Program-made: the position numbers and the translations under genes
Shown here: in pieces, positions 1 through 40,293 of the stretch
Layout of the letters: each line of letters opens with the position of its first letter
Position numbering within the stretch: position 1 is the first letter of the stretch
Source: a phage
Direction: 5' to 3' (one strand)
Assembly (NCBI GenBank): GCA_022897995.1
Contig: GCA_022897995.1_4763.1
DNA: 64,000 bases
Notes under the pieces: generated by a model
What the model saw: only the letters and a program-made list of their open reading frames with translations
What the model was told of the DNA's origin: nothing
Database searches by the model: none

Positions 1-959
1 AAAAAAACGTGTATGGTGAGGACCATGCTCAACCTGATTCGACTGGTGTTTACACTTGTCGCGTTTCGGTTGGTTTTGGTGATCATCGTGCGTCTCAAAT
101 GTCACATCCAGCAAGGGTATTAATTAGCGACAATGTTGAGATTGTGCCTAATGACTTACAGGTCACCGCACATCCTCATGATAATGACGTTAAGTATAAT
201 CAGCGTGTTATTTTAACAGCAAGATCTCAAAATAGCATTGGATTAAAACCACACATTCAATGGAAAAAAGATGGTGTGGCTATCCACGGTGCAAATTCAG
301 AGACTTTAGTAATTGAGCACGCAAAACCGTCAGATGCGGGAACTTATACGGCAGAGATCACCGCAGCAGAAAAAACGGTAACAACCAATCCAGCGGTCGT
401 TACTGTAGCAGAGCATAGCAATATCAATATCTTAAAACATCCGGTGGATGTGGTTGCAAAAGAAGGTCAAACCAATGATATTGTATTAGAAGCTCATGCA
501 GAACATGCAGACGGTGAAACCGAAGTTAATTATCAGTGGCATAAAATTAAAGATGGTGTAGACACTGAAATAAGAGATGCAACAAATAAAACTTTAGTTA
601 TCCCTCATGCACAGATCAGCAAGCAAGCTCATCAAGCGACCTATTACGCCGAGATAAAAGAAGAGAATGGACACGTTAAACATAGCGAAAAAGTTCGAGT
701 GGCGTTTACTACCGCGAAATTAAAACGCTATGTACACCCGATCCCGTGGCGTCGAACTTCCTTCCAATATCAGGGTTATTGGGTAATGGATGAAATTGAT
801 CGTTGTAACCGCGAAGGTCTTAACTGGCTTGAGGATTTTACCCACACCAAATACCCAGACGAGATCGAGACTATTGCAGCCTCGTTGCATCACTATTCTA
901 ATACTCATGTATTGGAATCTCGTAATGGTTATCTGGTTGACGGTACTCAACTATTTTAA
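1..959 (+). CDS. hoc: Hoc-like outer capsid decoration protein with Ig-like repeats (5' partial; frame open to window edge, first full codon at 3)
   Basis: No stop upstream in window; Ig-like repeats (DAGTYTAEIT); C-terminal RYVHPIPWRRTSF..WVMDEI..ESRNGY resembles the capsid-binding tail of T4 Hoc. Confidence 0.6.
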   Translation, partial: KNVYGEDHAQPDSTGVYTCRVSVGFGDHRASQMSHPARVLISDNVEIVPNDLQVTAHPHDNDVKYNQRVILTARSQNSIGLKPHIQWKKDGVAIHGANSETLVIEHAKPSDAGTYTAEITAAEKTVTTNPAVVTVAEHSNINILKHPVDVVAKEGQTNDIVLEAHAEHADGETEVNYQWHKIKDGVDTEIRDATNKTLVIPHAQISKQAHQATYYAEIKEENGHVKHSEKVRVAFTTAKLKRYVHPIPWRRTSFQYQGYWVMDEIDRCNREGLNWLEDFTHTKYPDEIETIAASLHHYSNTHVLESRNGYLVDGTQLF

Positions 960-969
960 TTAATTAAAT

Positions 970-993
970 GCCGATCTTCGGATCGGCTTTTCT
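970..993 (+). terminator. intrinsic terminator
   Basis: GCCGATC-TTCG-GATCGGC hairpin followed by TTTTCT. Confidence 0.65.
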
Positions 994-2235
994 ATGGAGT
1001 GGCTTTATATGGCTTTCACAGTATCAATTAAATCTAACAAAAGATGTTTTCTTGCTGGAGATGGTTTCACCTTAACAGCGACTGTAGCAGGTGACGAACC
1101 ATTACCCAGCAATTTGACCTATACATGGACAAAAGACAACAAACCACACGAAAATAACACCGCTACGCTAACCGTAGCAGGTGCAACAAGTGAAAATGCG
1201 GGCAACTATAAAGTCACTGTACAAGATACCGATAGCGGGGAATCGGTAGAATCTGACGTTTTCCGTATGGAAGAAGCTGAATTAATCGTTAAGATCACCG
1301 AACCGCCGCAATTCTACGTACCAACACAAACAGACGTAGAATTACATGCAACAGTAAAATTTTCTGGTGGGAAGACTCCAGCAGACAACTATGAATTGCA
1401 CTATAGCTGGAGCAAGGGCGAAGAAGTTATAGACACAACACAGGATATCACGATCCAAGAATTTACAGCCGATAATAACGGCGTGTATACTGTCAAAGTA
1501 TGGGGCGAATCGGAAGATTCAGCCGATAGCGCATCCACTAAAATTATGCTGGCTACAATGAGCGTAGATCAGGATGTGGTAGAGTCAAAGACCGTAGCAC
1601 TAGGTAAGGAGATCTTACTTAATTATGTTGTGTCAGAGGACATTGTAGGCGATTCTAGCGGTATGCCTAAATTGACTATCAAACATAATTGGTATTTGCA
1701 ACGTGAAGGACAGCCGTCACCGACTCTGATCGGTAGTGAGGTCGGCGAAGCACTGGAAGGATTTTCTATCATGCCAGACGGTCATCTGTTCAAAGAGCGT
1801 GCGACTTACGATGATACAGCCAAATTCTGGTGTGTTGCTAAACTATATCAACAGATCGAAGGCGCAACAGTAGAACTTGCAGCACGTACAAGCAGAAAAT
1901 GTTCAATGGAAGTTGTTGAGTCTCTTCATAAAATGTTTCGTTACGTGCACCCGATCCCGTGGCGCAAAACTTCATTCATCTATATTGGATGGTGGGTATT
2001 TGACGAGATTGTTAAATTCAATGAGGCTGGCTTAGAGTGGCGTCACCGAGAAGTTTATTCAACCAGCAAGTACGCCAAAGATCTGGAGACAATCGCGGCA
2101 GCGGAAGAAAAATATAGTGATTGCACTTGCATGGAATCTCGCAATGGTTTCATGTATCAGTCCAAAGAGTTCCATAAACTGGACCGAGAGACGTTAGAGC
2201 GAGTTCTACACATTCGTGAAACGCCTCCTGCTTAA
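994..2235 (+). CDS. hoc: Hoc-like outer capsid decoration protein, second tandem paralog (alternative start ATG 1009 after GGAG)
   Basis: 413 aa; Ig-like repeats (NAGNYKVTV, NNGVYTVKV); C-terminal RYVHPIPWRKTSF..WVFDEI..ESRNGF shared with the preceding ORF. Confidence 0.6.
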   Translation: MEWLYMAFTVSIKSNKRCFLAGDGFTLTATVAGDEPLPSNLTYTWTKDNKPHENNTATLTVAGATSENAGNYKVTVQDTDSGESVESDVFRMEEAELIVKITEPPQFYVPTQTDVELHATVKFSGGKTPADNYELHYSWSKGEEVIDTTQDITIQEFTADNNGVYTVKVWGESEDSADSASTKIMLATMSVDQDVVESKTVALGKEILLNYVVSEDIVGDSSGMPKLTIKHNWYLQREGQPSPTLIGSEVGEALEGFSIMPDGHLFKERATYDDTAKFWCVAKLYQQIEGATVELAARTSRKCSMEVVESLHKMFRYVHPIPWRKTSFIYIGWWVFDEIVKFNEAGLEWRHREVYSTSKYAKDLETIAAAEEKYSDCTCMESRNGFMYQSKEFHKLDRETLERVLHIRETPPA

Positions 2236-2246
2236 TGAAATCTATC

Positions 2247-2278
2247 AGCCATCCTTCGGGGTGGCTTTTTTGTTTTTA
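2247..2278 (+). terminator. intrinsic terminator
   Basis: AGCCATCC-TTCG-GGGTGGCT hairpin plus T-run. Confidence 0.7.
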
Positions 2279-2282
2279 GTGC

Positions 2283-2310
2283 TTGACAGTGTGATTTAGT
2301 GGCTTATAAT
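2283..2310 (+). promoter_or_regulatory. sigma70-type early promoter
   Basis: TTGACA 2283-2288, 16-bp spacer, TATAAT 2305-2310. Confidence 0.55.
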
Positions 2311-2430
2311 GGCACACATCAACAGGGCGTTACCTTATGAGGAAAATATTATGAATATGGGGTTGAAAATGGCTTTAATAACTGTTACTGTCCTATTCGT
2401 TGTTGTGTTTATGAATGTATGAGGTGAAGT

Positions 2431-2628
2431 ATGAATGAGATTGTACGATTGATCAAAGAAGCACCAATCGAGATGTATTTTCTGGCTTTGGTTGCAACAA
2501 TGGTCTATCAGCTAGTCGCATGTCATGTGTGGAAGTCAGAAAATGCGTTTATCCGGTTTTTTGGTACTGTCATGATCCAGTTTCCGGTACTGATCACTAT
2601 CCTGTTAATCGTCAATGGGGCGAAGTGA
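2431..2628 (+). CDS. small hydrophobic protein (hypothetical)
   Basis: ORF-track ORF, 65 aa, mostly hydrophobic; GAGGTG RBS near 2421-2426; I could not reconcile the first codons with my reading of the sequence. Confidence 0.3.
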   Translation: MNEIVRLIKEAPIEMYFLALVATMVYQLVACHVWKSENAFIRFFGTVMIQFPVLITILLIVNGAK

Positions 2629-2903
2629 TGGACAAGAAAACAGCGTTAATGGTTTACATGCTACGTGAAGACCACGGTCTTAATTTTGTTGATATTGCTA
2701 AAAAGATTGGCGGGATCAGCGGACAAGATGCGGCTAAGGCATGGTTGATGGTAAAAGATGCACGCGAGGCTTACGCCAACCGTGAAAAGGTTGTTTATCG
2801 TAAACACCACATCAACAAAAAATTTAAAAATAAAGTTCAAAAACGTGTTGACAAGCCAAATAACACTGTTATAATGGACGCATTCAAACGGGCAATGTCC
2901 TAA
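2628..2903 (+). CDS. hypothetical basic protein (91 aa)
   Basis: ATG at 2628 overlapping upstream stop (TGATG); ORF track extends to 2520; lysine-rich C-terminus. Confidence 0.4.
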   Translation: MDKKTALMVYMLREDHGLNFVDIAKKIGGISGQDAAKAWLMVKDAREAYANREKVVYRKHHINKKFKNKVQKRVDKPNNTVIMDAFKRAMS

Positions 2904-2949
2904 TTTGTAATTAATATTCTGAATAACTAATCAATAGAGGTGACTAATT

Positions 2950-3387
2950 ATGAAATTCCGTAAAAACCACGTAGCAATGAAAAAAGCAATGTTCGAAGCA
3001 TTCAAAGCAGTTGATCAGGGCGGTGTTACTCTGATTGAGCAAATTAATGTTGATGTTTGGCAATCTCCGGCGATCACTTGCTCACGTCTGGCGACGGCTG
3101 GTCTTCTGAACGTTCACAGCTCTACAGCATACGACGAAGCATTGCAAGTTATTAAGGCTTTCGCTGGAGACGTTACCAGCAAGTGGGTCTATGAGAATAA
3201 AGGTGAAATTGCGGTTGCTCACGTAGGCAACAATATCCAGATGGAAATCAAGATTAAGGAAGGGTCTAAACGCAATCAGATGCTTGTTCGCTTCCAGCCA
3301 TACAAAACTAACGTAGTGCCGGATGATCTGATCATCTCTAAGAGTAATGTTACCATTCGCCGAAATCAGATCGTTATCAACAAATAA
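2950..3387 (+). CDS. hypothetical protein (145 aa)
   Basis: AGAGGTG RBS 8 nt upstream of ATG 2950; terminator follows. Confidence 0.55.
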   Translation: MKFRKNHVAMKKAMFEAFKAVDQGGVTLIEQINVDVWQSPAITCSRLATAGLLNVHSSTAYDEALQVIKAFAGDVTSKWVYENKGEIAVAHVGNNIQMEIKIKEGSKRNQMLVRFQPYKTNVVPDDLIISKSNVTIRRNQIVINK

Positions 3388-3395
3388 TTAACATT

Positions 3396-3422
3396 AGCCG
3401 TCCTTCGGGGCGGCTTTTTTGT
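3396..3422 (+). terminator. intrinsic terminator
   Basis: AGCCGTCC-TTCG-GGGCGGCT hairpin plus T6. Confidence 0.7.
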
Positions 3423-3473
3423 ATCTATTATTGACATAATTTTAGTTTACATGTGCACAATATTAATACTGTT

Positions 3474-3514
3474 TGATTAAATTATGATCAAAACGAAGAA
3501 AGATCTTTAGAACA
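3474..3514 (+). repeat. intergenic repeat copy A (TGATTAAATTATGATCAAAACGAAGAAAGATCTTTAGAA)
   Basis: Near-identical to 3622-3660; AAAACGAAGAAAGATCTTTAGAA also at 43137-43159. Confidence 0.6.
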
Positions 3515-3621
3515 TAGAAAATGTATCTTTGATTAATTATTAATCAATACATATTGTAACACAAATGTTATACTCCGTAGGAGTTCGCGAAGCGATATCC
3601 TTTTGTGTAGTTTTACATGTA

Positions 3622-3683
3622 TGATTAAATTATGATCAAAACGAAGACTTATCTTATAGAATAATAAAAATTTGTTTCGAACA
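3622..3683 (+). repeat. intergenic repeat copy B (extends through TAATAAAAATTTGTTTCG)
   Basis: Shares TGATTAAATTATGATCAAAACGAAG with 3474-3497 and GAATAATAAAAATTTGTTTCG with 43158-43178. Confidence 0.6.
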
Positions 3684-3799
3684 TTTATTAATCAATTACT
3701 GGAAGTGTTTTATTGCTCGCTGTGCTCGCTTCCGCTACGCGGATACTTGTGTTTGTTATTAACTTGTAGTATGATATTGCTTTCTATGGAGGAAATATT

Positions 3800-4387
3800 A
3801 TGTTTGACCAGTTACAAGATCTATTTGGAGTAAAACCACTTCGTAGATGTGCTTTAATCGGCTCTAGAAAAGCGCCTAGCGACATTTTGATAATGGCTAG
3901 TACCATTGGGAGGGTATTGTCAGAAAATCGCGTTGTAGCGCATTCTGGAGGGGCTTACGGTATGGACAATGCTTTCATGAAGTATTACGATCCAGATTAT
4001 AGAAAAATTTTCATTCCAAATTGGAAGTTTTATGACCATAAGCATAACGGTCATGATGTGATTGCATGGCAAACCTTAGAACAAAAGAATCTGGCGATGG
4101 ATGAATTAGAACACGTTTATGATAATCCTCGTTCTATACCGTTATACATGCAAAATTTATTTTCTAGAAATGTTGCTCAAGTCTTAGGTGAGACACTTGA
4201 TGACCCTGTAGATTGTGTGATATTCTGGGCGCAAGAAGTTAATGGTATTGTTTCTGGAGGAACTAGAATTGCTGTCTATGTTGCTCGTAGACATGGGATA
4301 CCATGTTTTAACTTATATCATCAAGAAAATAGATCCGCCGTCGAAAAAATCTTGGGCGGATCTGATTTGTCCTGGTTAGATATTTAG
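3800..4387 (+). CDS. DprA/Smf-like Rossmann-fold (SLOG superfamily) protein
   Basis: GGAGG RBS then ATG 3800; motifs ALIGSRKAP and RVVAHSGGAYGMD match the DprA/Smf-LOG pattern; assignment from motifs only. Confidence 0.45.
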   Translation: MFDQLQDLFGVKPLRRCALIGSRKAPSDILIMASTIGRVLSENRVVAHSGGAYGMDNAFMKYYDPDYRKIFIPNWKFYDHKHNGHDVIAWQTLEQKNLAMDELEHVYDNPRSIPLYMQNLFSRNVAQVLGETLDDPVDCVIFWAQEVNGIVSGGTRIAVYVARRHGIPCFNLYHQENRSAVEKILGGSDLSWLDI

Positions 4388-5629
4388 TTAAGCGTTGTCA
4401 ATCTCAAGCGGTGGCAGTTCGATTCCTAAAATGTAGGACATTTCTGAACGTCCAGCCATTTTACCCCAATCGTCACCCTTAATGACCTGGTGTTCTTCCT
4501 GATCAACTTTTGATGTATATGGGTTGACAGAGAGTGAATAACGATTCATAATAGCTACATGATGCTGGAAACTATTAGGGTCAATTACGCTCTTATACGC
4601 GCCAGCGCCATCGGCTTCTGTGTATGGGGAGTAGAACAGAGAACCTACACTCTCCATATCACCGATCATGTGCTTACAACCAACGAGCATATAATCGAAA
4701 GGTGTTGTCGTGTCTGCGTACACTTCCAGACCGCAACGTAGACGACCTTCGCTTAGAGCGTTGTCGGTTTCTTCCATCCATCCGGTGGATTGCAGGAGGC
4801 CAACCACGCGAGAAGACGCCAAAACGTATGTACCAGCAAAGGAGGAAGTACGCAACATTTGATTGCTCATTTCGCACGCGTAGCGGTAAAGTTCGCGAGC
4901 TTGTTTTGGTGCATCCTGAACGCTAACGAGAGAAAGTACGCCATCAGGGGTGATCCCTTTAATTTTATAGCGAGATGATACAGTGATCAACTTCTGAATA
5001 ATATCTTTGTTGATCTCTTCGGAAGCGACAGTAGCCAGAAGATCAATTACAGAGTTTTCCGAGTTGATTTGGCTTGCTTCAAGATCCTGCATTAATTCAG
5101 TGGTGAACGAGGTTTTCAGTTTACGAGAACCTACATTAACTTGCCACTTGTCAAACTGCATAGAGGTAGACGCAATTTCGGTGTTTTTATCTTCAAAGTA
5201 TTCTACCGATGCACAATCGCTATAGAAACGAATTTTGTTTGTCATTACGCCTTTAAAGATCGCAGCTTCTGGAGTTGCTGCATCTTCACCGACTGTACCA
5301 GCGGTCACAACTTCATATACAACATCGCCAGATTTGAACAATGCGCCTTCATCATAAGATTTTTCTTTTGAAAACTCTTCAATCTCTGTGCGATCACCAG
5401 CCGCGCCACCGTATGTTGCAGCAGTTCGGAAAGTCATCTGACCATCACGATTAAGATAACGTAGGCCGTACAATGCAGATACTGGTTGATCCGTTGGCTG
5501 AATTGCTACCAGATCAGAGAAAATCAGGTTGTTTACCGCGCGAGTTAATGATAATAGTTGCGGTCGCGCTGTCTGGTTAGCTACTGAGGAAGTAGATTCC
5601 CGCAACAGTTCAGTAAAAATATGAGTCAT
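4388..5629 (-). CDS. 24: capsid vertex protein gp24
   Basis: gp23 paralog by similarity, T4 position after gene 23; ATG at 5629 (MTHIFTELL..) chosen over the upstream ORF-track start; late promoter upstream. Confidence 0.85.
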   Translation of the reverse strand: MTHIFTELLRESTSSVANQTARPQLLSLTRAVNNLIFSDLVAIQPTDQPVSALYGLRYLNRDGQMTFRTAATYGGAAGDRTEIEEFSKEKSYDEGALFKSGDVVYEVVTAGTVGEDAATPEAAIFKGVMTNKIRFYSDCASVEYFEDKNTEIASTSMQFDKWQVNVGSRKLKTSFTTELMQDLEASQINSENSVIDLLATVASEEINKDIIQKLITVSSRYKIKGITPDGVLSLVSVQDAPKQARELYRYACEMSNQMLRTSSFAGTYVLASSRVVGLLQSTGWMEETDNALSEGRLRCGLEVYADTTTPFDYMLVGCKHMIGDMESVGSLFYSPYTEADGAGAYKSVIDPNSFQHHVAIMNRYSLSVNPYTSKVDQEEHQVIKGDDWGKMAGRSEMSYILGIELPPLEIDNA

Positions 5630-5705: not shown

Positions 5706-5877
5706 AAATAAAAATTACTTCTTCCTAGAAACATTATCAACGCTACGGTTAACTTTGTTTACCAGATTAATTGCATGATCAGAACGAATAATTGCATAAG
5801 CTAATGCTAACATCAATTCGTCGTATTCCTTACGAGTCATAACATAGCTGTTTTCTTTCTTACTCATGCATTCCTCC

Positions 5878-6810
5878 TTATGGAGAATTTGGGGTTAATT
5901 CAGGGAACAGCGTACCAAAACCAAAATTACCGCTAGCGTCACGCTGGAATGTCATAACAAGGTCGACATAAACCGGATCTGTAAATCTATCAAATCTATC
6001 CGACCCAATATCAACCATGAACGCTAATTTAATCTCATTAGAATTTGAGATCGCAGCGTCAGCACATGCACCAAAAATTACCTGAGTATCTTTTGCCGTA
6101 TATGCATTGACCTGTATGTTGGTTGGTTTCATTACATCGTTAGACAAACCAGATAGTTCTACTCGTCCATTAAACGACGCCAGACTTTGACCACCGCCTA
6201 GATAATGAATATGACCACCTTGTGAAGATTGTGTCCAGTCCATTAGCATAACCTTAAATCTAGCCTCAAAACGCCCTTCCACGTAATATCGACCAGTTTC
6301 AAAGTTTTGTCTAATTGGTGTCCATGTGATGTGTGGTTTTCCGCTTACAGGATCGACAAGAGTCACACCTACGGCTGGCTTAATACTGACACTATCAAAT
6401 GAACGTGATAGCCAATTCCATGTTTGATTGTCTAGGTTTGGTAATTGTGGAATATTCAATCCATCTAATCGGCTGTGTGCTCGTGCTGCTTCCGATTCTG
6501 CGGTAGTCGCTTTAGTCAGTGCATCAGTTGCTTTGCTCATGGATTGCCCTGCCGTTCGATCAGCAACGTCCGCAGTTGATTTTGCAATCTCTGCCGTTCG
6601 ATGTGCTGAACTTGCTGTTTCTGTTATTACGTCATCGCACGCAATAACAAAATCAATTACAGGATCGATCAATTGAGTGTTGATTGAGTTGGAAATTCGT
6701 TCAACATCACTTTCCATTAGAGCATTAGATTCATTTCCTGTGAAATGAGTAATTTCACCTTGAACAAAATCATTTTGCAACTTGCTGATCTTTGCTTTAA
6801 TATCGGACAT
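5878..6810 (-). CDS. hypothetical late protein, coiled-coil N-terminus plus globular C-terminus (310 aa)
   Basis: GGGGTG RBS then ATG 6810; Ala/Thr-rich helical N-terminal third; part of the insertion between genes 23 and 24. Confidence 0.6.
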   Translation of the reverse strand: MSDIKAKISKLQNDFVQGEITHFTGNESNALMESDVERISNSINTQLIDPVIDFVIACDDVITETASSAHRTAEIAKSTADVADRTAGQSMSKATDALTKATTAESEAARAHSRLDGLNIPQLPNLDNQTWNWLSRSFDSVSIKPAVGVTLVDPVSGKPHITWTPIRQNFETGRYYVEGRFEARFKVMLMDWTQSSQGGHIHYLGGGQSLASFNGRVELSGLSNDVMKPTNIQVNAYTAKDTQVIFGACADAAISNSNEIKLAFMVDIGSDRFDRFTDPVYVDLVMTFQRDASGNFGFGTLFPELTPNSP

Positions 6811-6825
6811 GAATCACCCCGCTAA

Positions 6826-8544
6826 TTATTGTGCTTGCTCTGGAAGTGCTTGTATATTTTCTATAGTAGCACCCCATTTAACGGCATTTAAACGAGCTTT
6901 GTGCATATCGTCTTCTCCGACTATTGCCGCAAAACCCTTTTTAGCGTGGAAATTCGCCCATGTGTTATATGCTAGTGCACCTACGCGTTTTGCTGTGTCG
7001 TGTTCAACTTCATCAACCATCAGCATTGTGCGGAAAGGTGCAAATGCTACATCTGGGTTATCGTCTTGTGTCCATGAACCACCATTAAACGACACCTGCC
7101 ACCTGAACATCTCACCAGACGGAATTTGATTAATTCTCAACTTTAGAGATCTTGTTTTCTGGTTTTTCTGAGTTACGTCTAGTGGAACCTGATATCTAGC
7201 CGCTTGTCGTTCTCTACCATCATTCATCCTATGCCATGCGGTAACAACAAGCATAACCGGAATTGTGTTTGATGTTTTAATAAAACTAACATCAACTAAA
7301 AGTTCCATATCATAGCTACCAGATTTAGGCGCAACCCACCAATGGTCGGCATCAGCTTGTCGATCTGGCTCTTTAATCTGTGGTGTGCATCCATAGTTAT
7401 CATGAATGACATACTTCCACGGAATGTAAAAAGCACCACCGCCAGTTCCTGGATTTGTAACTTCGAGTAGATTTTGTGCAGTGGTAAACACGCTGGACAC
7501 GCGAGGGAAAGCATAAATGGTAGCACCACCAGTGTGATCGCTGATCTGTAACCATTCGGTCCATCGATCAGTTCTCTTTGTATAGGAACGGTGATACATT
7601 ACGCCATCAATGCTTGTTGCGATCTGCAATACATGATCTTTACATGCATGAACATCTACAGAACCATGCGTTTGTGTTCCATTTGGGCGGTTTGCGGACC
7701 CCTCAAAATAACAGAAACGACCCTGTTTCGTCAAGGAATTTAGGTCTAGCGTTTCTGGCGAAATTTCCGGTAGACGTTTACCCAGACTGGTTAACATCGC
7801 CTCCTGATCACCATTTAAACCACCGCCACCGCTTCCTTCCCCGCTTTGAGAGTTCCACTCACGCCATGCACCATTGTGTCGGATACGAGAGTAAACACCA
7901 CCATCAATAGAACGGACCACTTGAAGAATGCTACCATCGACGACATATACATCTGCGGACCCCTTATTCGCCATCATTGGAGGTTTGCCATAGGTTGCAT
8001 CACCTACCGGATAGCGTCCGGGTGATGTTGTTACATCCAGATTATTAATCGGATTCGTCGTAGTCCATTTTACTTCAATTGCAGATAGACGCTGCGCAAC
8101 GTTCGCTAATACTTCTGGCACTGGAAACACTAACGATTCTTGAGTTTCATCTGAATACGTGATCTCTAGAGTCCAGTTGCGATCGTCCTCGGACAAGTTC
8201 GCTTCGATTCTAGCAATACCACGACCATTTTCGCCCTTCTCACCAGGAATACCCTGTTCGCCCTGAATAACCCAGGTCATATCGACCCATTTGGAATTAT
8301 CGTATGGAGATTGCGACGTTTTACCCGTCCATAATTGGAGTTTAGCACCACAAACAATAATTGTTTTTAGTCGCTCCAATTCTGGAAAATGGGTGTTGAA
8401 ATATGCGTCTCGTTCCCCTTCATTTTCGAAACGGTGAGTATTTTTAATTCCGCTAGGTACGTTAGTTCCGATCTGAATACCGCCACCAGAACAACCACCA
8501 CTCACGGAACCAGCATTAATGATAGCTTGTGGATTTAGCTTCAT
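6826..8544 (-). CDS. collagen-like repeat containing protein, possible fibre or decoration protein (~572 aa)
   Basis: ATG 8544 after GGGGG RBS (ORF track starts at TTG 8568); Gly-X-Y run GEQGIPGEKGENGRG; repeated motif (ILQVVRSIDGGVYSRIRHNGAWREW / VLQIATSIDGVMYHRSYTKRTDRWTEW); Gly-rich linkers. Confidence 0.6.
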   Translation of the reverse strand: MKLNPQAIINAGSVSGGCSGGGIQIGTNVPSGIKNTHRFENEGERDAYFNTHFPELERLKTIIVCGAKLQLWTGKTSQSPYDNSKWVDMTWVIQGEQGIPGEKGENGRGIARIEANLSEDDRNWTLEITYSDETQESLVFPVPEVLANVAQRLSAIEVKWTTTNPINNLDVTTSPGRYPVGDATYGKPPMMANKGSADVYVVDGSILQVVRSIDGGVYSRIRHNGAWREWNSQSGEGSGGGGLNGDQEAMLTSLGKRLPEISPETLDLNSLTKQGRFCYFEGSANRPNGTQTHGSVDVHACKDHVLQIATSIDGVMYHRSYTKRTDRWTEWLQISDHTGGATIYAFPRVSSVFTTAQNLLEVTNPGTGGGAFYIPWKYVIHDNYGCTPQIKEPDRQADADHWWVAPKSGSYDMELLVDVSFIKTSNTIPVMLVVTAWHRMNDGRERQAARYQVPLDVTQKNQKTRSLKLRINQIPSGEMFRWQVSFNGGSWTQDDNPDVAFAPFRTMLMVDEVEHDTAKRVGALAYNTWANFHAKKGFAAIVGEDDMHKARLNAVKWGATIENIQALPEQAQ

Positions 8545-8551
8545 ATAATAA

Positions 8552-8860
8552 TTACCCCCGTTTAGCAAGATACACGGTTACAGTAGAATCATTGGAAACA
8601 GATTTTACTTTTGCCCTAATAAATGACCATAATGTTTCAAACGCTCCACCATCAGTTGCATATTCATTACCATCAGCTTTCAATTCTGAAATAGTGAACC
8701 AACCTTTGCCATCTAAGGAACCTTCTAACGAGGCTTCCGCAATGACTTTTTGCCCTTCCCTTGCACCTTCTACGGTCATTTGTACTGTCATATGCGTACT
8801 ATGAACGCAGTTTACCGACGCGGAAACGGCTGGAGTTTTGGTCTTTATAAGTGTGTGCAT
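8552..8860 (-). CDS. hypothetical late protein (102 aa)
   Basis: AAGGGGAG RBS then ATG 8860; TATAAATA late promoter ~39 nt upstream. Confidence 0.55.
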   Translation of the reverse strand: MHTLIKTKTPAVSASVNCVHSTHMTVQMTVEGAREGQKVIAEASLEGSLDGKGWFTISELKADGNEYATDGGAFETLWSFIRAKVKSVSNDSTVTVYLAKRG

Positions 8861-8898
8861 CTAATTTTCGCTCCCCTTAGAATATAGGCTTGCAACCT

Positions 8899-8906
8899 TA
8901 TTTATA
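8899..8906 (-). promoter_or_regulatory. T4-type late promoter (TATAAATA)
   Basis: Plus-strand TATTTATA 8899-8906 upstream of ORF starting 8860. Confidence 0.55.
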
Positions 8907-8922
8907 ACGGGATATAATACGC

Positions 8923-8951
8923 AAAAAGGGAAGACCCTTTCGAGTCTTCCC
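8923..8951 (-). terminator. intrinsic terminator downstream of gene 23 (minus strand)
   Basis: GGGAAGAC..GTCTTCCC stem followed on the minus strand by T5. Confidence 0.65.
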
Positions 8952-9021
8952 TTTGGAATTAACACTTTACACTGTCATAAGGTTTATGATAAGTCTGGTA
9001 TTGCACCCGACCGGAGTTTAA

Positions 9022-10605
9022 TTAGCAACCTTTAACCCATACACGGCGGAAGTATGCGTTTTTACCTACGCTGTCTTTGCTCAACATACCGGAGGTGATG
9101 CGAGCGGAAGGTGCCTGGGATTTGCTGTCTGCAAACGGGTTAATACCGATGCCATAGCGAGTCTTGAAGCCCAGAACCGGATGGAAAGACTGCGGATCAG
9201 TTGCACGCAGCGGAGTCAGAGCAACATACGGTGCATAGTAGATACCAGCATCCATTTCGTTGTCGCCTTTGTAACCTACAGTGAAGTAGTCCTGACGAGC
9301 ATACTGGTCGATGAATACTTTATACTTACCAGCCAGAACACCAGCGAAAACTGCTTTAGTGGTGTCGGTGTTCAGACCCTGTGCAGCACCCTGCATAGCA
9401 ACACTGATACCCTGATCAGCAGAAGCCAGAATGTTTACAACGTTACGGGAAGCGATAACAAAGTTACCAGCACCGCGACCAGTCTGACGAGCGATTTCAG
9501 CAGCTTCTTTGTCGATCTGGTAGATCAGAGATTTGAAGGATTCACCAGCCCAACGAGCACCGCGAGTATCGATCGGGTCTTGCAGGTCAAATACACCAGC
9601 TTTAGAACCAACGGTCTGAGTCATGCCAGTCTTACCAACCTGAGCGGTAAAGTTAATTACGTCAACGATTTCACGGTTGATTTCCAGCAGAACTTCGTTA
9701 GCCAGAATAGCATTCAGTTCAGCGTCAGCATCCATACCGTGTACAGCACGCAGATCCTGCGCAACTTCGATAGAATAACGAGCTTTCAGTTGGCGAGATT
9801 TCGCTTCAACTACCTGTTTGTCAATACGCATTGACATTTCGTTCCACGGGTTACGCTGAGAACCGTTAAAGCCTTCTTGCAGTTCCGCGATGGAAGTAGC
9901 CATACCAGCAGCAATTTCAGCCAGTTCTCCTTTTTCGATCAGCTTCATTACGCATTCATCGAGGGTATCGCCGGAAATAGTTGGGGTTACGGTAGAACCT
10001 TTAACGTTTTGCAGATATGCAATACCAGTTTCTTCGAATACATGATACACGATATCACCAGCATTAATACCAGTGCTTGCCGTCAGTTTCTGGAATGCAG
10101 TACCAGTCGGAGAGCTTGCTGTTGCATCTTTAGCTGCCAGAGAGCTATGATAAACATCAGGCGCAAACATTGGGTGGAATGCTTCGCGAGCATTACTTGC
10201 CAGAGGGTCGCCGCCGTATACAGAACGGATTGCGAAGATCTGGCTAGTCGGGGTGCTCATCGGCTGAACGCCACAGATATCAAATGCGATCAGGTTAGGA
10301 ATAGCACGGCGAACCATACCAATAACAGCCGGACCTACGTTGGTGATTGCACCAGTAGTTTGACCTGCGGCGATTTTATTTGCATCGTAACCGTGGTCGC
10401 CAGCAACTTCGGCTTCTGCGATAAAGCCACCGAATGCTTCAACAACTTTTTCATCCTTATAGATCGGGTCTACAGCAAAGTCCGCTTCCTGAGATTCCAG
10501 AATTTTAGCAACCAGTTTCTGCTTAGACGCAGTTGCGATTTCCGGCAGTTTTTCATTTTCCAGCAGCGGGGACCATTTTTCCATCAGTTCTTTGGTAGTT
10601 TTCAT
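9022..10605 (-). CDS. 23: major capsid protein gp23
   Basis: 527 aa; length, composition and position (after 22, before 24) match T4 gp23; classic late promoter upstream. Confidence 0.9.
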   Translation of the reverse strand: MKTTKELMEKWSPLLENEKLPEIATASKQKLVAKILESQEADFAVDPIYKDEKVVEAFGGFIAEAEVAGDHGYDANKIAAGQTTGAITNVGPAVIGMVRRAIPNLIAFDICGVQPMSTPTSQIFAIRSVYGGDPLASNAREAFHPMFAPDVYHSSLAAKDATASSPTGTAFQKLTASTGINAGDIVYHVFEETGIAYLQNVKGSTVTPTISGDTLDECVMKLIEKGELAEIAAGMATSIAELQEGFNGSQRNPWNEMSMRIDKQVVEAKSRQLKARYSIEVAQDLRAVHGMDADAELNAILANEVLLEINREIVDVINFTAQVGKTGMTQTVGSKAGVFDLQDPIDTRGARWAGESFKSLIYQIDKEAAEIARQTGRGAGNFVIASRNVVNILASADQGISVAMQGAAQGLNTDTTKAVFAGVLAGKYKVFIDQYARQDYFTVGYKGDNEMDAGIYYAPYVALTPLRATDPQSFHPVLGFKTRYGIGINPFADSKSQAPSARITSGMLSKDSVGKNAYFRRVWVKGC

Positions 10606-39738: not shown

Positions 39739-40293
39739 TTACACATCAGCCTTTTCCATTTCTCGAATGAATGCGTTAATAAATTGTTTAATTTGTGTAG
39801 GATCTATGATCTTGATCTTGCGTCGTTCCTCATTGCGGAGAATCGCATCTTCCAGTGTGTCTACTGCCGATAATGCACCATGAAACTGCAAATGACGATG
39901 ATGAATATCTCCTTTATCATACCAATTGCTTGATCCTTTCGGATATTCGGCAAGATTCCAATACTTGTTTCCGTCAATATCAACGTGGTATAATACTTGA
40001 TTTCCTCCTACATTTGCATATCGCTGTTCGGCTGATTCATATGCTGTCTCTTGATCGGTGATCCAGTCATGGAATGGATCGTATACGTCATTAAGCATCA
40101 GCAAGATCCAGTAAAGTTGTTGGTTTCCGTATACTTCATATGCAACTTGTTCCGGTCGTGGACTACCTTGAATATAATATGTTTGTATGTTATAATCAGA
40201 AATTATTGCGTTGAAATATGCGCGGTAATTGCGCACAATGTCAGTAATCATCTTGCCGTTGTATTCAATGGCAGGGAAGAAAGAAAAGAGCAT
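39739..40293 (-). CDS. 53: baseplate wedge subunit gp53
   Basis: 184 aa; ..YYIQGSPRPEQVAYEVYGNQQLYWILLMLND.. matches T4 gp53; GAGGA RBS. Confidence 0.85.
   Translation of the reverse strand: MLFSFFPAIEYNGKMITDIVRNYRAYFNAIISDYNIQTYYIQGSPRPEQVAYEVYGNQQLYWILLMLNDVYDPFHDWITDQETAYESAEQRYANVGGNQVLYHVDIDGNKYWNLAEYPKGSSNWYDKGDIHHRHLQFHGALSAVDTLEDAILRNEERRKIKIIDPTQIKQFINAFIREMEKADV

Follow-up and report, generated by a model that had tools for sequence, protein, structure and literature searches.

Two tandem predicted Hoc genes in the head-gene region of an RB49-like Krischvirus

Introduction

The head decoration protein Hoc is usually invoked for the adherence of phages to mucus and to bacterial or mammalian surfaces, and it serves as the principal platform in T4 display and vaccine work. 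T4 and RB49 each carry a single functional hoc gene. The phage contig GCA_022897995.1_4763.1 (GenBank assembly GCA_022897995.1) raises the question of whether one phage can encode two Hoc proteins and place both on the same head. A stretch of 64,000 nucleotides (nt) of this contig, hereafter called the window and numbered from its first letter, was analysed. Two same-strand open reading frames (ORFs), here ORF1 and ORF2, lie within its positions 1-2235. The initial annotation of this region, made from the sequence alone, had proposed that both encode Hoc paralogs with different arrays of immunoglobulin-like (Ig-like) repeats, competing for or sharing the same hexamer sites. Taken as a whole, the locus is probably best explained by two Hoc-family fibres that dock through a C-terminal domain (CTD) at gp23* hexamers, compete there, and give the head a mixture of fibres.

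Results and discussion

Identity of the two genes

The first 6 kb of the window match 59 records at 90-99% nt identity, and the records opened among these matches belong to Krischvirus, the RB49-like genus of Straboviridae. The source of the window is assigned by this similarity to Krischvirus, as an RB49-like T-even coliphage, and the 59 matching records served as the Krischvirus set for all presence and absence counts. The locus itself matches Krischvirus genomes with 94-96% nt identity. Among the closest relatives is a contig from IMG/VR, with 98.5% nt identity over window positions 1-3956.

The shorter of the two genes, ORF2, had been listed from position 994. Its true start is the ATG at 1009, from which the product begins MAFTVSI, like the RB49 Hoc crystal sequence; RB49 is, to our knowledge, the source of the only crystal structure of Hoc Ig domains. 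The resulting protein of 408 amino acids (46 kDa, isoelectric point (pI) 4.89) matches the PHROG 1149 family, "Hoc-like head decoration", with an E-value of 2e-79. Its residues 310-384 align with T4 Hoc residues 291-363 (5vf3_Z; HMMER domain E-value 6e-11). ORF2 is on these grounds the ortholog of RB49 Hoc, with three Ig-like domains followed by a CTD.

The reading frame of ORF1 runs uninterrupted from the edge of the window to its TAA stop (957-959), and the GTG at position 9 from which it had been listed is an artefact, being merely the first start-like codon inside the window. The full-length ortholog in phage UPWr_E1 has 847 amino acids and 96.9% amino acid identity over the ORF1 fragment. 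The IMG/VR contig likewise encodes a long protein of 847 amino acids, and the frame is open at 846-847 amino acids in five sequenced relatives and the IMG/VR contig. The long protein of UPWr_E1 has eight Ig-like units, recognized by a repeated W...Y.C pattern, followed by the tail, and six Ig_3 stretches of the full-length ortholog exceed the Pfam threshold. The window holds half of Ig unit 6, units 7 and 8, and the CTD (Table 1). To the single hoc of T4 and RB49 it thereby adds a preceding eight-Ig member of about 96 kDa, with a pI of 5.8 in full-length orthologs and 6.0 for the window fragment. The two Hoc paralogs of the initial annotation stand as members of one family; what it took for the first protein is a fragment of a longer, eight-Ig fibre.

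ORF1 also matches PHROG 1149 (E-value 4e-33). An AlphaFold model of the ORF1 fragment, built on a shallow alignment of 14 homologous proteins that lacked the full-length GenBank orthologs, contains two confident Ig domains that match tandem I-set/C2 Ig structures. Domain 7 is modelled with beta-strands at residues 61-135, a predicted local distance difference test (pLDDT) score of 70-90, and tandem-Ig structural matches. A Foldseek search with the whole model of 318 amino acids returned mostly eukaryotic tandem-Ig proteins and was uninformative on the tail. The ORF1 tail of 85 amino acids was modelled alone for the fold search described below.

Table 1. Positions of the two hoc genes, their domains and associated elements in the window.
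Feature	Position	Strand	Evidence or remark
Long Hoc paralog, 3' part (318 codons and TAA stop)	3..959	+	gene runs off the window start
Ig-like domain 6, C-terminal half, long paralog	3..131	+	W...Y.C register from UPWr_E1; pLDDT <50 at residues 24-58, low-confidence part of the model
Ig-like domain 7 (I-set/Ig_3 type), long paralog	132..416	+	Pfam Ig_3 E 8e-11 and I-set E 1e-8 at residues 53-128
Ig-like domain 8, long paralog	417..710	+	beta-strands at residues 141-235, pLDDT ~87-95; weak PKD-like Pfam match at 157-202
Predicted Hoc-type capsid-binding CTD, long paralog	711..956	+	40% identity to T4 Hoc; 8t1x_X fold match, TM-score 0.77
Recombination crossover zone, inside the long-gene CTD	750..900	+	sliding nt identity: upstream resembles UPWr_E1, downstream SSG23, Brandy and JK32
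C(UUCG)G hairpin, 7-bp GC-rich stem, then UUUUCU, between the hoc genes	970..987	+	-14.7 kcal/mol, z -2.4
Shine-Dalgarno GGAG of hoc	997..1000	+	read from sequence
hoc (short paralog), residues 1-303	1009..1920	+	aligns with RB49 Hoc crystal structure 3SHS, E 2e-178
hoc CTD, 24-amino-acid C-terminal extension and stop	1921..2235	+	38% identity to T4 Hoc CTD, E 2e-17
Terminator-like C(UUCG)G hairpin and T-run, ending the hoc transcription unit	2247..2266	+	
Orphan 2.8-kb three-gene module between g24 and g23	5878-8860	-	ORFs 5878-6810 (310 amino acids), 6826-8544 (572 amino acids), 8552-8860 (102 amino acids)

The shared capsid-binding domain

The central observations of the initial annotation were borne out. 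The two tandem proteins share a tail of about 80 amino acids, with 48% identity over 81 amino acids (BLASTP E-value 1e-27), in which the motif RYVHPIPWR(R/K)TSF.Y.G.WV.DEI...ESRNG(Y/F) reads exactly as reported. The tail core from YVHP to ESRNG is 54% identical between the window paralogs, the alignment of the two proteins over their whole length has an E-value of 7e-26, and Ig_3, I-set and Ig_2 matches above the Pfam cut-offs are found in both. Similarity of the C-termini to T4 Hoc, on which the initial annotation had staked its proposal, is likewise significant for both proteins. The ORF1 tail is 40% identical to T4 Hoc residues 293-367 over 75 amino acids (E-value 4e-18), the ORF2 tail is 38% identical over 84 amino acids (E-value 2e-17), and HMMER comparison with 5vf3_Z gave E-values of 1e-12 and 5e-13 for the two proteins.

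The ORF1 CTD was modelled as strand, helix, helix, strand, strand (pLDDT 81, predicted template modelling score (pTM) 0.71). The only significant match of this model in the PDB was the CTD of T4 Hoc (residues 281-376), 8t1x_X, with TM-scores of 0.77/0.69 and a root-mean-square deviation of 1.8 A over 75 columns; the next match had an E-value of 1.4. The Hoc CTD fold, in which a helical bundle sits over a beta-sheet base, has been described as lacking other structural relatives in the PDB (PMC10385173, section 3.3). In T4 Hoc, the conserved residues Y293, H295, R300, W309, W310 and D313 and the loop E355-S-R-N-G359 bind gp23* or hold the loop (PMC10385173, section 3.4). All of these are present in both window paralogs save W309, which is a tryptophan in every short copy and a tyrosine in every long copy. 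Alignment statistics, contact residues and fold (the last modelled for the ORF1 tail) together indicate that both tails are Hoc capsid-binding domains.

These results bear on whether the upstream protein belongs to the head at all. In the PDB, the sequences that best match its Ig part are an "Immunoglobulin-like domain protein" of a phage (9ncf_S) and a "tail protein" (9c2d_S), and ORF1 matches PHROG 3995, "tail protein", as would be expected of an Ig-rich tail, neck or whisker accessory that shares only Ig domains with Hoc. The tail-protein matches cover the Ig repeats only, however, while both sequence and fold identify the last 80 amino acids specifically as the Hoc capsid-binding domain, and the long gene sits between inh and hoc. 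A location away from the head is therefore considered very improbable.

The gene order agrees with this position. The order around the locus in relatives is uvsW, inh, the long ORF where present, hoc, small ORFs, a DprA-like gene and g24, and from hoc downstream to g24 the window genes are collinear with those of the relatives. The order uvsW, inh, hoc is that of the hoc region in the T4 annotation, and hoc is placed beside inh in the annotations of UPWr_E1, SSG23, KFS-EC and T4. As in T4 and RB49, the hoc genes of the window thus lie in the inh-side head-gene region and encode a CTD with the T4 contact residues.

Selection on the two genes

Comparison of the ORF1 fragment with its UPWr_E1 ortholog gave a ratio of nonsynonymous to synonymous substitution rates (dN/dS) of 0.04 (dN 0.017, dS 0.42). 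Neither hoc copy carries disabling changes, which agrees with the initial proposal of two decoration proteins. Between allele types, full-length comparisons among five phages gave dN/dS values of 0.10-0.14 for the Ig part of the long gene. The long proteins are 64-71% identical overall between allele types, and their CTDs 91-99%. The long gene is maintained under purifying selection, with a strongly constrained anchor.

For the Ig part of the short Hoc, dN/dS was 0.17-0.30 between one-Hoc and two-Hoc phages and 0.04-0.12 among two-Hoc phages. It was about 0.8 between KFS-EC and Phi1 (stretches L003 6150-7376 and L005 1806-3020), for which dS is only 0.04. Selection on Hoc may have been relaxed or changed after loss of the long paralog, the counts being small.

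Loss of the long gene in relatives

An intact long gene was found in six of the 59 Krischvirus records: UPWr_E1, SSG23, SFHK24, JK32, Brandy and G2248. The remaining 53, RB49 among them, have a frameshifted stump of 148 or 223 nt between inh and hoc. In this stump, the last 112 nt of the long gene follow, out of frame, directly on its 5' end, of which either 36 nt (MSNKINVLHQTE) or 111 nt are left. Both stump forms have the same 3' junction. The shorter form occurs in 41 records and the longer, Phi1-type form in 12, the difference being a 75-nt loss between CAGAA repeats. The stump-bearing phages also lack the long gene's stop codon as well as the hairpin between the genes. Since stumps of the long gene with a shared junction are found in 53 of 59 records, the genus had two Hoc genes ancestrally, and the single Hoc of RB49 is a derived state.

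Small "hypothetical" ORFs annotated at the stump (for example Phi1 ORF168.1 and PHROG 32100) are debris of the long gene. The gene itself is dispensable, and was removed by internal deletion in the lineage that contains RB49 and most sequenced isolates. Among IMG/VR Krischvirus contigs, one carries the intact long gene and three the deletion junction, numbers too few for an estimate of natural prevalence. Any account of the Krischvirus capsid surface based on RB49 and the majority of isolates, which are deletion derivatives, would overlook a 96-kDa component, one that is encoded in some therapeutic-candidate isolates (UPWr_E1, SSG23 and JK32).

The same pattern of loss could mean that only the short Hoc decorates the head, the long gene being a relic that is poorly expressed or not incorporated and is on its way out. 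Deletion in 53 of 59 records, including the type phage RB49, would fit such a history, as would the failure to find a late promoter of the long gene's own and the label "hypothetical protein" in five of the six GenBank records that contain it. In every carrier, however, the ORF is intact at 846-847 amino acids despite dS of up to saturation between alleles, dN/dS is 0.04-0.14, and the CTD is nearly invariant. The ATG of the long gene is also preceded, at a distance of 7-8 nt, by a good Shine-Dalgarno sequence (GAGGA), and in a decaying gene 2.5 kb would not have stayed open across alleles with about 65% identity. We regard decay of the long gene in its present carriers as improbable.

Divergent, recombining hoc alleles

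Against a backbone of 97-100% identity, the two hoc genes stand out as islands in which three allele types share 55-70% nt identity. The window combines a UPWr_E1-type long allele, at the amino acid identity given above, with a short allele of the SSG23/JK32/Brandy type; its Hoc is 98% identical to that of SSG23 and 67% identical to that of UPWr_E1. Among the fetched sequences, a UPWr_E1-type long allele joined to an SSG23/JK32-type short allele was otherwise found only in the IMG/VR contig. The change of nearest relative falls inside the CTD of the long gene (Table 1). The window is thus a recombinant in which the conserved CTD served as the crossover site.

With low dN/dS and dS saturated between types, the divergent forms are old alleles exchanged by recombination. 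Codon-level positive selection was considered as the cause of the Ig-array divergence, and was ruled out by the dN/dS range of 0.04-0.14 and by the saturated dS. Deep allele divergence in a near-identical backbone marks the hoc genes as the fastest-turning-over surface loci of these phages, a turnover that is relevant to immunogenicity and pharmacokinetics in phage therapy.

Two further observations concern neighbouring capsid genes. At window positions 4350-4950, in the 3' part of g24, JK32 falls to 81-88% nt identity while the other phages remain at 92-98%; this part of the capsid vertex gene is a further local mosaic patch in JK32. The gp23 of the window (g23, 9022-10605, minus strand) is about 92-93% identical to the gp23 of other Krischviruses, and its Hoc-binding loop is invariant. 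Of its 39 differences from the gp23 of KFS-EC, 37 cluster in alignment columns 77-261, the putative surface insertion domain of gp23. The outer shell face is a third variable surface locus.

Other phages with two Hoc proteins

By remarking that T4 has a single hoc, the initial annotation implied a novelty that is weaker than it seemed, for double Hoc is already known from Muldoon, from PG7 and from the annotation of JK32, and near-identical genes are in GenBank. In Shigella phage JK32 (MK962753) the same two genes occupy the same place, and both (JK32_00170 and JK32_00169) are annotated as "Hoc head outer capsid protein". The same two genes are also present in UPWr_E1, SSG23, SFHK24, Brandy and G2248, where the long one is not annotated as Hoc. 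A tblastn search with the tail found 1576 CTD copies in 1330 phage records, about 18% extra copies, so additional copies of the domain are common.

Serratia phage Muldoon encodes a 10-Ig Hoc of 1174 amino acids and a 2-Ig Hoc of 314 amino acids (Fokine et al. 2023, PMC10385173). It shares with the window the combination of a long and a short fibre with one CTD type, and its gene order is the same: inh, long Hoc, UUCG hairpin, short Hoc, small ORFs, DprA-like gene, g24. The two Muldoon CTDs are 75% identical to each other, 66-74% identical to that of T4 and 28-38% identical to the Krischvirus CTDs, whereas the Krischvirus pair is 51-56% identical mutually and 40-43% identical to T4. A common origin with the Muldoon pair was ruled out on these figures, since CTD identities group by phage lineage and not by length class. 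The Krischvirus and Muldoon duplications are therefore independent, the likeness being one of organization only. The two Krischvirus genes arose by duplication inside the Krischvirus lineage, in an event that, to judge from the identities, is older or at least more diverged than that of Muldoon.

In Enterobacter phage PG7, two proteins share the Hoc capsid-binding domain (PMC10385173). One of the PG7 partners has this domain at its N-terminus, fused to a GDSL lipase/acylhydrolase, whereas both window proteins are pure Ig fibres with the domain at the C-terminus. A literature search on the Krischvirus double Hoc returned nothing beyond Fokine et al. 2023 (PMC10385173), and the RB49-type deletion history, the CTD as a recombination joint and the strict module co-occurrence described below were not found stated in the searchable literature. 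These three points are modest additions to the known double Hoc.

Would both proteins decorate the head?

On T4, one Hoc binds per hexamer, giving 155 per head, and binding occurs only after expansion (PMC10385173). RB49 Hoc binds T4 Hoc-minus capsids in vitro (PMC10385173), which implies that a CTD only about 40% identical to that of T4 still uses the T4 site. In Krischviruses, the gp23 segment equivalent to T4 residues 326-344 is identical in one-Hoc and two-Hoc phages, with D336, P337 and R344 kept.

The following sequence of events is proposed. Both Hoc proteins would be late products, probably of a single transcript begun upstream of inh, and the UUCG hairpin between the hoc genes would modulate the ratio of long to short protein. 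After capsid expansion, each Hoc would dock via its CTD at the centre of the gp23* hexamers. One site per hexamer would oblige the two to compete, and the head would then carry a mixture of short fibres of about 18 nm and long fibres of roughly 40 nm with different Ig arrays. Such mixed fibres would widen what the capsid surface adheres to.

Several points weigh against this proposal. That about 90% of sequenced isolates have lost the long gene shows that it is not needed for growth on laboratory hosts. The long protein, at pI 5.8, is less acidic than typical Hoc (4.6-4.9; PMC10385173, Table S1), although a pI of about 4-5 is a common trait of Hoc and does not define it. The literature yielded no virion proteomics for a two-Hoc Krischvirus, and presence in the virion is inferred, for the long protein especially. 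A plus-strand search upstream of the two hoc genes gave no exact T4 late promoter (TATAAATA). The best candidate, AATAAATA, deviates at one position and lies ahead of inh in UPWr_E1, and with no canonical late promoter beside either gene, transcription probably starts before inh; co-transcription of the two hoc genes is a guess. Finally, the two CTDs are only about 54% identical and have conserved paralog-specific differences, namely the W309Y exchange, the loop between helices 1 and 2, and the tail of 24 amino acids on the short protein only. These could mean different affinities or different sites.

The last point also leads to an arrangement in which both proteins are on the capsid without competing, their CTDs having been subfunctionalized for different hexamer classes (for example vertex-proximal against the rest) or for orientation, so that decoration is patterned. 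CTD cores are 51-56% identical between paralogs and yet conserved within each (91-99% for the long, 81-93% for the short), which indicates that the differences are fixed and maintained. Among these differences are a gp23 contact, W309, and the short-only C-terminal extension, and T4 Hoc itself behaves differently on vertex-proximal hexamers (PMC10385173, abstract). Against this, the paralogs do not differ in the ESRNG loop or in the other conserved contact residues, the gp23 site is identical with and without the long gene and so gives no sign of co-adaptation, and on T4-type capsids no second kind of Hoc site is known. The two CTDs may partition the hexamer lattice in a defined pattern; as the account of the whole locus, non-competing decoration is unlikely, and competition for one kind of site is preferred.

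If both proteins are displayed, eight-Ig and three-Ig fibres on one lattice would amount to a natural dual display, and the phage would widen or tune its surface adhesion with the shell untouched. The basic picture of Hoc biology is unchanged by these results.

A co-occurring module between g24 and g23

An orphan three-gene module lies between g24 and g23 (Table 1). It is complete only in the six long-Hoc phage records and the same IMG/VR contig, with no exception among the 59. From the remaining 53 Krischvirus records, only two pieces align with the query stretch (window 5800-9000), amounting to about 12% of it, a pattern suggestive of a second internal deletion at this site. The protein of 572 amino acids has two knob-like Y.R...G.W.EW repeats and a short collagen-like run (GxxGxx). 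For most of this protein, matches are confined to the six long-Hoc records, and a weak similarity of about 80 residues occurs in 78 Vibrio phage records. No informative match to the proteins of 310, 572 and 102 amino acids was found in PDB, Pfam or PHROG.

The co-occurrence of module and long Hoc reflects either functional linkage or shared clade history. A speculative and quite doubtful extension is that the two form one accessory capsid-surface apparatus, in which the long Ig fibres have a fibre- or knob-like partner anchored at or close to the head; the lineage most common in laboratory collections would then have lost this apparatus whole.

Intergenic hairpins and other features

The hairpin between the hoc genes is kept, with compensatory changes, in all two-Hoc phages and in Muldoon, and is absent from the deletion derivatives. 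It is either a partial terminator or an RNA-stabilizing element. Because its T-run is missing in UPWr_E1, its role may lie in adjusting read-through or mRNA stability and not in termination. One C(UUCG)G tetraloop design is common to three intercistronic hairpins of the plus strand (970-987, 2247-2266 and 3396-3415), which we take to be examples of the classic T4-type extra-stable hairpin. Terminator-like sites number nine, against 3.1 expected by shuffling.

Two perfect-consensus sigma-70 promoters (TTGACA-16-TATAAT, 12/12) were found on the plus strand at 2247-2310 and 2848-2875, the first of them immediately downstream of the terminator-like hairpin of hoc. Their apparent targets are the small ORFs between hoc and g24, so that an early-type unit would lie inside a late head-gene region. 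Farther along the window, cumulative GC skew has its minimum and changes sign at about position 40000, and this switch at about 40 kb probably reflects a change of the predominant coding strand.

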